6,204 nt of DNA from a virus (IMGVR_UViG_2541047839_000003), one strand, 5' to 3'. Positions 1 to 6,204 are shown, counted from the first letter of the stretch. A program made the numbers and translations. Notes: generated by a model not told the origin, from the sequence alone.

Positions 1-1
1 A

Positions 2-604
2 GAACGCCGTGATCTGTTGAATAACGTTCTGCGCATTGGTGGTTTTATGACACCAAAAGGGAAGCCTAAAGTGCCGGAAGCACTGTTTAAAAACATCTGC
101 GACTCTCTCGGCCTAAAAACAGGAAAACGTCGCGGCAGAGATGGCGATAAGCGCCCGACATTGCGTTTTGTTGAGCCTGAGTCTGTAGCATTTATGCTTG
201 ATATTCTTGCGCAACGTCAGGAGGACGGTATGACGTTGAAAGCTCGCAAGGCGGAAAAATCAACGACCGAAGTGGATCGCGATTTGTCATTAAATATATA
301 TATGAATGGTGAAACGCGATCCACAAACACGGTGGAACAGGATTCCCCTCGTTCAGCTATATCACAGGCTTTGGCCGTATTGCCGGTGGCTGTTCCTGAG
401 TCCTGGGCGATGAGTGCGCTTTCCAGTGAGGAGTTGGCCACTATGTCATCATGGTCATCAGCCAGCATAGCTATGACGTTTGCATCCCTGTACCTCACAG
501 AGTTCATGGATCACCTTTCCAGCAATGAGCTGCGGCGGTTACGTGAATACATTACGGGGAATAGCTCATGCAGCTACGAAGAGCAGGGCGCTTTCTATGG
601 GTAA
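2..604 (+). CDS. hypothetical protein, 5'-truncated at the window edge (C-terminal ~200 aa visible)
   Basis: The reading frame is open from position 2 with no stop before the listed 17..604 ORF, so the gene starts upstream of the window; stop TAA at 602-604. Same orientation as the downstream genes. No family recognised. Confidence 0.5.
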   Translation, partial: ERRDLLNNVLRIGGFMTPKGKPKVPEALFKNICDSLGLKTGKRRGRDGDKRPTLRFVEPESVAFMLDILAQRQEDGMTLKARKAEKSTTEVDRDLSLNIYMNGETRSTNTVEQDSPRSAISQALAVLPVAVPESWAMSALSSEELATMSSWSSASIAMTFASLYLTEFMDHLSSNELRRLREYITGNSSCSYEEQGAFYG

Positions 605-2550: not shown

Positions 2551-2610
2551 CACCTCGCTGCGGTAAATCCCGCAGTCGGGACTTCGCAATCCTGGCAAAA
2601 CGAAGCGCAC

Positions 2611-2634
2611 AACACGCGCCAGCGTGTTTTTTTG
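2611..2634 (+). terminator. intrinsic terminator / attenuator in the operon leader
   Basis: Stem CACGC (2613-2617) / GCGTG (2622-2626) with loop GCCA, extendable by two A-T pairs, followed by a run of seven T (2627-2633). It lies inside the leader, upstream of the structured RNA element and the first ORF. Confidence 0.5.
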
Positions 2635-2664
2635 TGTGTATAGACCTGCGCATATCCGAATTAT

Positions 2665-2743
2665 GGTGGCTCAGGTGGGGCTGACTTCGGTCGGGCCGGT
2701 TTCTTCGTTTACCGGTATTGCGAACCCCGCCTGGGCTACCACC
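2665..2743 (+). ncRNA. candidate C4/CI-type immunity antisense RNA (structured ~80-nt element); boundaries approximate
   Basis: A long-range stem closes the element: GGTGG 2665-2669 with CCACC 2739-2743, CAGG 2672-2675 with CCTG 2730-2733, TGGGG 2676-2680 with CCCCG 2725-2729. It encloses two hairpins: CTGAC-TTCG-GTCGG (2681-2694) and CCGG-loop-CCGG (2696-2715). The second loop contains CTTCGTTT (2703-2710), complementary to AAACGAAG (2598-2605) in the leader and, with one G-U pair, to AAACGGAG (2784-2791) over the GGAG of the next ORF. Confidence 0.35.
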
Positions 2744-2799
2744 AATAAAGAGATTCGCAACTCTGGTGGTAGCACGACCAATAAAACGGAGTGCATACC

Positions 2800-2964
2800 A
2801 TGTTCAAATTCAAATTTGCGGCAGTCGTTCGCACAGACAAAAAGTCCCACATTCATCATCTTTCCACTATCGCGTCATCTGAACGGGAAGCTCGTCGCCA
2901 GTTCGCCAGCCGGTTTGTCCTGGTATTGTCTGCCCGTATTCCGGTGCGCGAGGTGGCTGCATGA
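2800..2964 (+). CDS. Icd-like small protein (54 aa), candidate cell-division inhibitor and first gene of the operon
   Basis: ORF MFKFKFAAVVRTDKKSHIHHLSTIASSEREARRQFASRFVLVLSARIPVREVAA, too short for the supplied track. GGAG at 2788-2791 lies 8 nt before ATG 2800. Its stop overlaps the next start (ATGA at 2961-2964). Size, position and the motif resemble Icd-like proteins as I recall them; not verified by alignment. Confidence 0.55.
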   Translation: MFKFKFAAVVRTDKKSHIHHLSTIASSEREARRQFASRFVLVLSARIPVREVAA

Positions 2965-3194
2965 ATCAGGTAAAAATGAACGCTGTTGGCCTGCTGGAAT
3001 CGTTGGATGAACGTCTGGCTCAGGTCTATGCGCTCGTATCATCAGCCCATCGGACAGTCTCCAGCTGTGAGGCGTCGATTTATCTCTCAGAAGCAGGGAA
3101 ACTCCTTCAAATTGCGTGTGAGTTAACACACGAAGCACAGGGGTATTCAGCATCTCTCTCGTCGCAATTGCAGCACAATAAGGAGGCCAAATGA
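2961..3194 (+). CDS. hypothetical small protein (77 aa), middle gene of the operon
   Basis: Listed ORF; GAGGTGG at 2951-2957 precedes ATG 2961. Its stop overlaps the next start (ATGA at 3191-3194). No family recognised; it occupies the position of an antirepressor accessory gene. Confidence 0.55.
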   Translation: MNQVKMNAVGLLESLDERLAQVYALVSSAHRTVSSCEASIYLSEAGKLLQIACELTHEAQGYSASLSSQLQHNKEAK

Positions 3195-3973
3195 GCGCGT
3201 TAGCTGTATTTTCGTTTCAGGAAGAGCATCAGGTTCGTGTAGTGATGATTAACGGTGAGCCGTGGTTTGTGGCTAAGGATGTATGTGATGCTTTAAGACT
3301 CGTTAATTCCCGGAAGGCGCTAATGTCTCTGGATGAGGATGAAAAGGGTGTAACTTTAAGTTACACCCCTGGCGGAGAGCAAAAGCTAAATATTATTTCA
3401 GAGTCAGGTCTATACACCCTGATCCTCCGCTGCCGTGACGCGGTGAAGCAAGGCACAACAGCTTGGCGGTTTCGCAAATGGGTAACGAACGAAGTCTTGC
3501 CCTCTATTCGCAAAAATGGAGAGTACGTTTACATCGAGCCTGAGCCAATGCGAGCAGCGGAGCCGTTGAACTGGAGGCAGAAAGAGTATCTGCGAGGGCT
3601 GATTAACGATATAGCACAAAGTTTTCAGTACCGAAATGCCTGGATTAGCGGTGTATGGTTAGCTTTGCGTCGGGCGTGTCGTAATCCATCCCCGAACCCC
3701 ATAACGGTTGATGATTTGCCAGCAATTACGGCAGAACTGCGCCGGATTTTGACGGCTGCTGAGTCGGCATTGGGGAACATGCGCACGTATGAACGAGAGT
3801 TGTTGCGTGATGTTGTTCGTGGGGGTAGGCGGAGTATGTCGTGTGGTGATTTACCCATCACCGATATTAACTCTGATCTGGAAAAGGCGTTACCCGCGCA
3901 TTTTGAACTGGCAGTTCAAAAACTTGAGCAGTTATCCGCGCAGCTAAAGCCAGCAGAAATCACCAATAAATAG
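3191..3973 (+). CDS. Bro-N domain protein, antirepressor-like (260 aa)
   Basis: N-terminal ~110 aa (FSFQEEHQVRVVMINGEPWFVAKDVCDALRL ... ESGLYTLILRCRDAVKQGTTAWRFRKWVTNEVLPSIRKNGEY) matches the Bro-N signature seen in phage Ant/KilA-type proteins. AGGAGG at 3181-3186 precedes ATG 3191; stop TAG 3971-3973. Confidence 0.85.
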   Translation: MSALAVFSFQEEHQVRVVMINGEPWFVAKDVCDALRLVNSRKALMSLDEDEKGVTLSYTPGGEQKLNIISESGLYTLILRCRDAVKQGTTAWRFRKWVTNEVLPSIRKNGEYVYIEPEPMRAAEPLNWRQKEYLRGLINDIAQSFQYRNAWISGVWLALRRACRNPSPNPITVDDLPAITAELRRILTAAESALGNMRTYERELLRDVVRGGRRSMSCGDLPITDINSDLEKALPAHFELAVQKLEQLSAQLKPAEITNK

Positions 3974-4109
3974 GGTTGACCAGCCCGAATTTATGCCCTT
4001 CTTAGAGAAGGGAAGCCTCGCAGTCGGGGCGGTGATGTCTGTGGTTGCAGCCGCGTTTCCTCCGTTACTTCTGCCCTTTGCAGGGGGCAGGCGAGGTAGG
4101 TCACACAAC

Positions 4110-4133
4110 AAGGCACCGTTAATTCGGTGCCTT
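4110..4133. terminator. hairpin between the convergent ant operon and telN, candidate bidirectional terminator
   Basis: AAGGCACCG (4110-4118), loop TTAATT, CGGTGCCTT (4125-4133): a 9-bp stem 12 nt beyond the telN stop. A T-rich tract follows on the plus strand (TTACTGTATGCTTT) and a U/G-rich tract on the minus strand. Confidence 0.45.
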
Positions 4134-4144
4134 TACTGTATGCT

Positions 4145-6046
4145 TTAACCGAAATATGTCAGCCATGCTAACTGCATTGCTGACATGGGGCTGTTTGCAC
4201 TGCCGGACCACGCATAATTCTGGCCATTATAATGAAACTCAACAACGTATGAGCCATCACCAATATTTCTCACCGGCTTAAATACCGGCTTAGATACAGG
4301 CGAAGAAGGTGCAGGCGGTTGCTGTTCTTCTACGCTATCTTCCTCTTCCTCTTCCTCTTCCTCTATCTCAATTTCGTCGTCATCCAGATCGTCATCCTCT
4401 GATAATTCATCCGCCAGTTCAGGTATTGCTTCCAGTTCTTCTTCGTCAGGCATAACGATTTCTGGAGTATCTATTTTCAGTTGCCATTGTCCGTTTTCGC
4501 CAACAAATTGCCCCAGAGCATCAGCAGCAAATTCCAGGTATCGACTAATCATTGTTGGGCTAAATTTGAACGCTCTTAGAGTGCTGTTCGTGATTTTTAT
4601 AGAGGGGTCCTGCTCTACCAGCTGCTTAACTGTGTTATGCAGACGAACCCCGGCATCTCCTCTGGCGAATCCAGGCATTTCGTCATCAAGCTGCTGCAAT
4701 GCTTCCAGCCTGGTATTTTCGTTTCCAGTATTTGGCCTCCATGTCTTTGAGAAGTTGGCCAGCTTGAATTGCTTATAGTGTAATTGAGTGTTTTCATCGT
4801 CATGGCCTAAAATTTCCATAAAGAAAACATCTTCATCTACGTTTTTCCAACGAGGATCTACGCGGAAAAACATTTCATACGCAATACGGGCATAAATAGC
4901 ACGACTATCTTTATAAACACGGCGGTCATCTTTGAAAAATGATTTAACCCACGGGTTAAAAGCCTTTGCTAATATGGCATTAATACGTCCGTTTTCAGAG
5001 CGTGTGTCGTTATCTCCATAACCTTTAACGACATCATCAAAATCAGATGCTGCTGGGCATGAGCGAAGTACATTTATTAAATAAACAAATGTTTTTGCTT
5101 CGCATAATGTATATATTTTTCTGGTTATATTATCAGAAGTTCTTTTTTTAGCTTGGCCTAAAAAATCAACGGTATACTTACCAGAAACAGTAAATGTACC
5201 TTGATACATAATCTCAATCATTCGTCTTCCTGACAATGCAGCAAGTGCAAATGCCAAAGGAGCCATACCTGAACGAGTGTTTAGATTATTTAATGTAGCA
5301 GGGCTATTTATAATATCGTAAATAGCTTGCATATATTTAGGGTAATCAATGACCACCACGTTACGTTTCTTATTGTGCAGAACGTCCGCCCATCGTTGCT
5401 GGATAGATGCACGTTCGGCAGGGCTTAGTTGAAGATGATAGAGAATCTCATGGTTAACTTTTAGCTGATTCAACTCCTCAAGTAAGGCAGATCCTTGCTG
5501 TAGTAATTTATATAAATAATCGCGCTTATCTTTCCAGTTATCGCTAGTTAAATCAGAAATGGCGAATTGCCACTCTTTATATTTATTTGATAATTTCAAT
5601 AACTTATTATGACTTTTGTTATCGCCAATTCTGATATTAGATAAATCTTCTGATAGAGGGAGAATTAATTTTAATTTTGCCTGTAAAGCTGACATTCTCT
5701 GGCGAATATCGGCAGCAGGTAGAGAAAGCCATGACAATAGCTCCTCATTATATAAAGGATACTTTTCAGATAGGCGATGTATATTTTTTTCAAAGCTATG
5801 ATGAAGTTTATCATCAAACCGTTTTCTGGCCCTGCTCATATAGGCATTGAATGTGTTGGCTGTAATTCTTTTTTCTAATCCTTTCCCCCTAAACTTTCGC
5901 TTGTCATTAAATAATGCATTTTTAAATTTTAATGCAACAGCCTTTATTTTTTTTGTTTTCTCCCCTTGAGGACGGTCAGAGTTATCTATTGACTCAACAT
6001 CGCTAACAAGTGAGTTTATTAATTCACCGATTTTTACTTTGCTCAT
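4145..6046 (-). CDS. telN: protelomerase (telomere resolvase), TelN/TelK family, complete, 633 aa
   Basis: The translation is recognisably close along its length to N15 TelN as I recall it (MSKVKIGELIN..., KRITANTFNAYMSRARKRFDDKLHHSF, TRSGMAPLAFALAA.SGRRMIEIM, RSENGRINAILAKAFNPWVKSF, ILGHDDENTQLHYKQFKLANFS). His423-Tyr424 (Tyr codon at 4775-4777) sits where I recall the TelN catalytic tyrosine. The start is preceded by AGGAGAGG on the minus strand; stop TAA at 4145-4147. Confidence 0.93.
   Translation of the reverse strand: MSKVKIGELINSLVSDVESIDNSDRPQGEKTKKIKAVALKFKNALFNDKRKFRGKGLEKRITANTFNAYMSRARKRFDDKLHHSFEKNIHRLSEKYPLYNEELLSWLSLPAADIRQRMSALQAKLKLILPLSEDLSNIRIGDNKSHNKLLKLSNKYKEWQFAISDLTSDNWKDKRDYLYKLLQQGSALLEELNQLKVNHEILYHLQLSPAERASIQQRWADVLHNKKRNVVVIDYPKYMQAIYDIINSPATLNNLNTRSGMAPLAFALAALSGRRMIEIMYQGTFTVSGKYTVDFLGQAKKRTSDNITRKIYTLCEAKTFVYLINVLRSCPAASDFDDVVKGYGDNDTRSENGRINAILAKAFNPWVKSFFKDDRRVYKDSRAIYARIAYEMFFRVDPRWKNVDEDVFFMEILGHDDENTQLHYKQFKLANFSKTWRPNTGNENTRLEALQQLDDEMPGFARGDAGVRLHNTVKQLVEQDPSIKITNSTLRAFKFSPTMISRYLEFAADALGQFVGENGQWQLKIDTPEIVMPDEEELEAIPELADELSEDDDLDDDEIEIEEEEEEEEDSVEEQQPPAPSSPVSKPVFKPVRNIGDGSYVVEFHYNGQNYAWSGSANSPMSAMQLAWLTYFG
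4338..4363 (-). repeat. (CTTCCT)4 hexamer repeat encoding an eight-Glu run in the telN linker
   Basis: TCTTCCTCTTCCTCTTCCTCTTCCTC on the plus strand corresponds to (GAG GAA)4 on the coding strand, inside the acidic segment DDDEIEIEEEEEEEEDSVEE. Confidence 0.8.
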
Positions 6047-6080
6047 CTTTCCTCTCCTGATTATCCGCTCGGATTATCGT

Positions 6081-6176
6081 AACACAATTTGAGAATAAGA
6101 TAACTAATAACGCGTTAACTTAGCCACAAACTAACAGAACACAATAACGGATAATAAATAAAAACACAATATCGGA
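6081..6176. repeat. three direct repeats of AACACAAT upstream of telN, candidate tos-type TelN-binding repeats
   Basis: AACACAAT occurs at 6081-6088, 6138-6145 and 6163-6170; the last two extend to GAACACAATAACGG and AAACACAATATCGG (12 of 14 identical). In telN orientation they read ATTGTGTT, resembling the ATTGTGTG arm of the N15 telomere palindrome as I recall it. Confidence 0.45.
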
Positions 6177-6204
6177 ACGTTAAAATTTGTTCCTTGACTT
6201 TGTT

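Follow-up and report, generated by a model that had tools for sequence, protein, structure and literature searches.

The window analysed here, the whole 6,204-nucleotide stretch of a viral sequence (IMGVR_UViG_2541047839_000003), carries on its minus strand, at 4145..6046, an open reading frame (ORF) of 633 amino acids, whose product is very probably a functional protelomerase of the TelN/TelK type, from a temperate, N15-like phage that is kept as a linear plasmid prophage in Escherichia. This reading is based on homology, domain architecture, active-site conservation, synteny, and the position of the telomere (tel) site in contigs encoding the identical protein. In addition, comparison at the sequence level supports the assignment of the DNA to the N15-like (Ravinvirus-type) phage-plasmid lineage. 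The gene marks the contig as part of an N15-like phage-plasmid of ~46 kb that is common in Escherichia; the protelomerase is already catalogued as a gene of this lineage, and the value of the finding lies mostly in annotation, with no new question on protelomerases being raised.

The protelomerase gene and its relatives

In the six-frame ORF list of the window, the 633-aa ORF starts with ATG, and a Shine-Dalgarno sequence, GGAGAGG, can be read from the sequence 4 nt 5' of this codon (6051..6057, minus strand). The gene is regarded as complete because the tblastn alignment with N15 TelN covers residues 1-632 of 633. A sigma-70-like promoter was not found on the minus strand of 6047-6204, the 158 nt upstream of the gene within the window. 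Within the protein, all four Pfam domains that characterize TelK and TelN (the PF22853/PF20849/PF16684/PF20818 set) are present in order, namely TelK_N (residues 4-78, 140.6 bits), TelK_muzzle (residues 81-198, 170.9 bits), the catalytic domain ResT-TelK_cat (residues 257-427, 88.2 bits), and TelK_stirrup (residues 443-533, 162.1 bits), and these scores of 88-171 bits are to be read against gathering cut-offs of 27-28 bits. The stirrup is followed by an acidic linker (residues about 533-585), with 28 Asp/Glu per 53 residues, and by a small C-terminal domain (residues about 586-633), which, according to the alignment, is kept across the phage enzymes. In TelN, C-terminal parts are not needed for resolution or for protection of the telomere from Mre11-Rad50 (PMC12624138). 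Moreover, the sole match in a PDB sequence search is phiKO2 TelK (chain 2v6e_A, E = 1.8e-295), and it spans residues 1-536, the entire crystallised construct.

As the catalytic fold and the R-K-R-H-Y chemistry are common to tyrosine recombinases and type IB topoisomerases (PMC3558466), the protein might be thought to be some other tyrosine recombinase or integrase that merely resembles protelomerases. However, it is collinear with TelK over its full length at about 79% identity, with the TelK-specific muzzle and stirrup included, and the Pfam search gave no family besides the TelK domains; such an origin of the resemblance is considered vanishingly improbable. The similarity to TelK/TelN proteins is far above chance, and identification of the ORF as a complete TelN/TelK-type protelomerase (telomere resolvase) is supported. 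An earlier note on this DNA, made from the sequence alone, had proposed a TelN-like protelomerase of 633 aa on the minus strand, and the exact ORF, the four Pfam domains and the TelK match bear this out.

The closest relatives differ little from the window protein. By tblastn, identity is 98.9% to the enzyme of Escherichia phage YDC107_1 (CP025712.1; annotated protelomerase, genus Ravinvirus) and 98.7% to that of Escherichia phage PhiR46_1 (PV340565.1), and 630 of the 633 residues are shared with the RefSeq 'protelomerase family protein' WP_052985248.1, encoded by the E. albertii plasmid pEA8_3. Across these three, the proteins belong to one length class and are 98.7-99.5% identical to the window protein; in the DNA around the gene, identity is 94-98% and gene order is alike. 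WP_052985248.1 is distinguished from the window protein by one substitution (N306D) and by a run of glutamates in the acidic linker, which in the window protein (residues 562-569; 4304-4327, minus strand) comprises 8 Glu rather than 6; the latter difference looks like a slippage-type polymorphism.

At a greater distance, phiKO2 TelK (PDB 2V6E) is 78.6% identical and has the same N-terminal, muzzle, catalytic and stirrup architecture, but its acidic linker differs in length, giving 640 aa as opposed to 633. N15 TelN (gene 29) shares all catalytic residues and 77.4% identity over the full length, while about 23% of residues differ. Identity falls to 43.2% for Yersinia phage PY54 Tel and to about 32% for the phiHAP-1 and VP882 protelomerases, the alignments of the latter two being gapped over most of the muzzle region. 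Comparison with N15 TelN, phiKO2 TelK and PY54 Tel is what the earlier note had proposed as the check on its identification, and in none of these cases was significant similarity wanting. PY54 Tel and the phiHAP-1 and VP882 enzymes, as well as TelA of Agrobacterium and ResT of Borrelia, have the catalytic domain and the active-site set in common with the window protein, whereas TelA and ResT are without the muzzle and TelA is also without the stirrup (PMC3558466, PMC11317167). In the general annotation libraries, the enzyme is poorly represented: NCBIfam has no model matching either the protelomerase or the RepA fragment of the window, and PHROGs places the protelomerase in phrog_5272, a family of 'unknown function'. 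These misses are library gaps and constitute no argument against the identification.

Active site and proposed mechanism

The conserved active-site residues of TelA are Arg255, Lys286, Tyr363, Arg366, His394 and the nucleophile Tyr405 (PMC3558466). For transfer of these positions, the window protein was aligned with N15 TelN, TelK, PY54 Tel and the phiHAP-1 and VP882 enzymes, and the resulting alignment of six phage protelomerases was used as a profile against PDB, where it reaches TelA (4f41) and ResT (8vs5). The corresponding residues of the window protein are Arg275 (TelA Arg255; motif GRR), Lys300 (Lys286; GQAKKR), Lys379 (Tyr363) and Arg382 (Arg366), both in KDSRA, His415 (His394; LGH), and Tyr424 (Tyr405; TQLHYK). 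All six are invariant in the six phage enzymes; the third position, which is Lys in the phage enzymes, is Tyr in TelA. Loss of the active-site Arg/Lys/His/Tyr residues, named in the earlier note as a finding that would speak against a protelomerase, is therefore not encountered, nor is an absence of similarity to protelomerases.

With respect to the nucleophile, the numbering and the histidine assignment given earlier need to be revised. The His423-Tyr424 pair had been placed at the position of the catalytic tyrosine of N15 TelN. The window protein does have TQLHYK there, and Tyr424 is homologous to the nucleophile, but the nucleophile itself is residue 425 in both N15 TelN and TelK in native numbering, the offset being due to a one-residue deletion near position 306 in the window protein. 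In TelN, the Y425F mutant is catalytically dead (PMC12624138). His423 cannot be kept as a hallmark, since its position is occupied by Ala or Ser in PY54, phiHAP-1 and VP882; as judged from the alignment, the catalytic and conserved histidine is His415.

A scheme for the action of the enzyme can be drawn from the literature on TelK, TelN and TelA, its chemistry, the function of the upstream repeats and the topology of the molecule being put forward by analogy. A protelomerase dimer would bind the palindromic tel site just beyond the window end, as TelN and TelK do, and Tyr424 of each subunit would attack one strand, producing staggered cuts 6 bp apart and a 3'-phosphotyrosine intermediate, with catalysis presumably assisted by Arg275, Lys300, Lys379, Arg382 and His415. 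The freed 5'-OH ends would then be refolded and ligated to the complementary strand, giving rise to two covalently closed hairpin telomeres. In this manner, the protelomerase would turn the infecting genome, once circularised, into a linear prophage and, after RepA-driven replication, would resolve the replicated telomere junctions. TelN also shields hairpins from SbcCD (PMC12624138), and the same role is plausible for the window protein at 77% identity.

Gene neighbourhood

The genes around the protelomerase follow the arrangement of N15. At the start of the window, 1..604 (plus strand) holds the 3' end of repA, a homologue of N15 gene 37 truncated by the window start; it matches positions 1103-1289 of the 1290 positions of the phrog_4913 profile (E = 1.8e-50), as expected of an N15-type repA, and full RepA proteins in relatives comprise 1327-1331 aa. 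Further downstream lies an anti-immunity locus on the plus strand, consisting of an isrK-like leader RNA (2557..2632; 52.8 bits against a gathering score of 50) with a terminator hairpin at its end (2611-2628), a C4-type antisense RNA (2659..2746; 82.3 bits against a gathering score of 45) that is the counterpart of the N15 cA locus, an icd-like gene (2791..2964; host cell division inhibitor Icd-like protein, NF033153), a small anti-repressor-type ORF of 77 aa resembling N15 gp31 (2961..3194; annotated relatives and PHROGs), and a Bro-N antirepressor gene (ant) homologous to N15 gene 30 (3191..3973; Pfam and PHROGs). The segment 2425-3073 has 80% DNA identity to the N15 cA region. With the isrK-like RNA and the C4 RNA upstream of icd and ant, this locus is an anti-immunity switch under RNA control, of the kind known from P1 and N15.

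As the earlier note had stated, the anti-immunity operon and telN are convergent, with the C4-type RNA, icd and ant directed at the telN 3' end. The note regarded this layout as differing from N15, but it is no departure, because N15 genes 30-32 oppose gene 29: in the N15 record, telN is gene 29 on the plus strand, genes 30 (Ant), 31 and 32 come next on the minus strand, and genes 33-36 and gene 37 (replication protein) lie further on, so that ant, gp31 and cA/icd converge on the telN 3' end with repA beyond them. In phiKO2, too, the anti-repressor gene is convergent on the telK 3' end. A point of difference is that a bidirectional terminator is annotated after telK in phiKO2, while a terminator scan found no terminator-like site in the ant/telN spacer of the window (3974-4144). 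The same spacer contains a 51-aa ORF (3993-4148, plus strand), which has a 4-nt overlap with the telN stop codon; its match is to phrog_35352 (E = 2.4e-25), a family of unknown function, and in YDC107_1 it is annotated as hypothetical.

Between repA and the anti-immunity locus, a low-GC island (1607-2419; GC 0.33-0.37 as against 0.45-0.51 in the flanks) coincides with an ORF of 270 aa on the plus strand, which begins with a lipoprotein-type signal, MRNKKTTALLLSILLLSGC. It has no match in Pfam, PHROGs, PADLOC or NCBIfam, but seven N15-like Escherichia plasmids carry it at 96-100% identity, and versions of 60-62% identity are found on small plasmids of Enterobacter and Klebsiella, every copy being labelled 'hypothetical'. 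YDC107_1 and PhiR46_1 are without it, the slot in PhiR46_1 being taken by a gene annotated 'Spackle exclusion protein'. The position seems to be a variable slot for accessory genes, and a possible product of the ORF is an exclusion or surface protein.

Telomere region and replicon topology

In N15, the 56-bp telRL site is located upstream of telN. The core CCATTATACGCGCGTATAATGG is found in N15, phiKO2, pEA8_3, YDC107_1 and PhiR46_1, and in seven of the eight examined contigs that encode the identical protein it is centred 191 nt upstream of the ATG, which corresponds to window position about 6237/6238 as the expected tel centre. No telomere palindrome was detected in the window by an inverted-repeat search of 5900-6204 and by reading of the sequence, because the last window position, 6204, falls 5 nt short of the 56-bp site and 33 nt short of its centre; for the same reason, we infer the pairing of enzyme and target from relatives.

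The 22-bp tel core is the same in N15 and in the lineage of the window, but the flanking arms have diverged, reading CAGCACATAATT(A/C/T)CC in this lineage as opposed to CAGCACACAATAGTCC in N15, and the perfect palindrome is longer than in N15, at 42 bp in L009-L011. Together with the 77% identity to N15 TelN, the shared core with diverged arms and the 42-bp palindrome would be compatible with the enzyme of the Escherichia lineage being a specificity variant of TelN, an idea that we consider rather unlikely. If it were true, the enzyme could be partly orthogonal to N15 TelN/telRL, and partial orthogonality would be of interest for the construction of linear vectors and of DNA with closed ends.

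Upstream of the gene, on the telomere side, there are three exact copies of the motif AACACAAT on the plus strand (6081..6088, 6138..6145 and 6163..6170), and the positions of these AACACAA repeats are kept in N15 and phiKO2. In sequence, the repeats are similar to the R3 arm of the tel site (CAGCACATAAT), and they agree with what is known of N15, in which degenerate versions of the L3/R3 motif occur as repeats of the R1/R2 type (PMC12624138). By analogy, they are probably accessory TelN-binding sites of a telomerase occupancy region, to which additional TelN would bind. Across the window as a whole, AACAYAAY is not enriched, with 3 copies where 1.33 are expected and at least that number in 31 of 200 shuffles, whereas clustering of the motif within 90 nt upstream of telN has a Poisson probability of about 6e-6, a value that ignores local AT-richness. 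The signal is thus meaningful only as a 90-nt cluster combined with positional conservation in N15 and phiKO2. An inverted repeat, GGAAC-N10-GTTCC (6174-6193, plus strand), is located between the last of these repeats and the window end; it is present in close relatives and weakly in N15 and phiKO2, and may be a protein-binding site or a promoter element near the telomere.

The window itself holds neither a telomere nor topological information, and it has accordingly to be asked whether the gene resides in an integrated or defective chromosomal prophage with no linear plasmid, in which the protelomerase would be a relic or serve another role. In line with such an origin, counterparts of the C4 RNA segment 2575-2729 (~155 nt), at 78% identity, occur on many E. 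coli chromosomes. However, this segment accounts for all chromosomal matches listed among complete E. coli genomes, and those matches are presumably other prophages, whereas each of the 17 records at >=90% identity is plasmid-sized (27-75 kb). Moreover, the exact protein is listed in 104 blocks of a public assembly collection, in 95 of which the longest carrying contig is 10-50 kb and in none of which it exceeds 200 kb, and the ORF is intact with every catalytic residue. Residence in a chromosome is therefore extremely unlikely, and a phage-plasmid is preferred, with further matches in PLSDB on plasmids of E. albertii, E. fergusonii and Shigella of about 42-49 kb.

The gene content of the lineage leads to the same replicon type. 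Eight contigs encoding the identical protein (L009-L016) were examined, none of which contains the window exactly, the best having 96 mismatches in 6204. They carry SopB-SopA, the tel site, telN, ant-icd, the 270-aa ORF, RepA, a CB-like HTH repressor, Cro and Q, and L009 has lambda-like tail genes in addition; this gene set is the N15 gene plan. Outside the window, in L009-L016 and pEA8_3, sopAB thus lies across the tel site, and the CB-like repressor, cro, Q and siphovirus tail genes are found. Hence, of the features that the earlier note had named for inspection, repA, sopAB, cB and a telomere palindrome, all are present in contigs with the identical protein, while the window itself contributes the 3' end of repA and not the palindrome. 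The proposal of an N15-like phage-plasmid holds on the Pfam, PDB, DNA and tblastn matches, the plasmid size of all E. coli matches at >=90% identity, and the lack of any carrying contig above 200 kb.

As to topology, several sets of assemblies of relatives give indirect signs of hairpin ends. The record of PhiR46_1 has an annotated telL site at its start, and in many plasmid records the tel centre lies no more than about 30 nt from one end. L014-L016 end 17-23 nt beyond the tel centre as perfect fold-backs, and in L014 the sequence is GCACATAATT, the telN-side arm in mirror image, where the sopA-side arm would give AAACATAATT. In YDC107_1, the two arms of a perfect inverted repeat meet at the tel core with 0 nt between them, and 3.3 kb of flanking sequence is present as a mirror image. 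The assemblies are not uniformly linear-ended, because pEA8_3 and L009-L011 are filed as circular records in which the tel junction between telN and sopA is uncut. These near-identical records could be taken to mean that the element is a circular plasmid, or that the sequence derives from the virion or a circular form, in which the tel site stays unprocessed. Such a 'circular' status is, however, an assembler default, as short-read graphs join both arms through the shared palindrome, whereas other assemblies of the lineage are interrupted at the palindrome or continue through it as fold-backs; in addition, an intact protelomerase beside its own site would be expected to cut that site, and the type member N15 is linear as a prophage (PMC12624138). 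A circular element is accordingly very unlikely.

The N15 module set and the fold-back contig ends at the palindrome give good support to a linear phage-plasmid with hairpin ends for the lineage, and from the lineage we infer this form for the molecule of the window. For the interpretation of assemblies, this means that hairpin ends can be expected to yield broken contigs, fold-back duplications and spurious 'circular' records. In the YDC107_1 record (L001, CP025712.1), telN, ant and icd are duplicated as a mirror image around the tel core (5362-13297), with the second telN copy split into three ORFs. The duplication is most likely no real sequence but the result of an assembly that read through the hairpin end, and several plasmid records of 61-91 kb, in each of which two places match, may share the same assembly problem.
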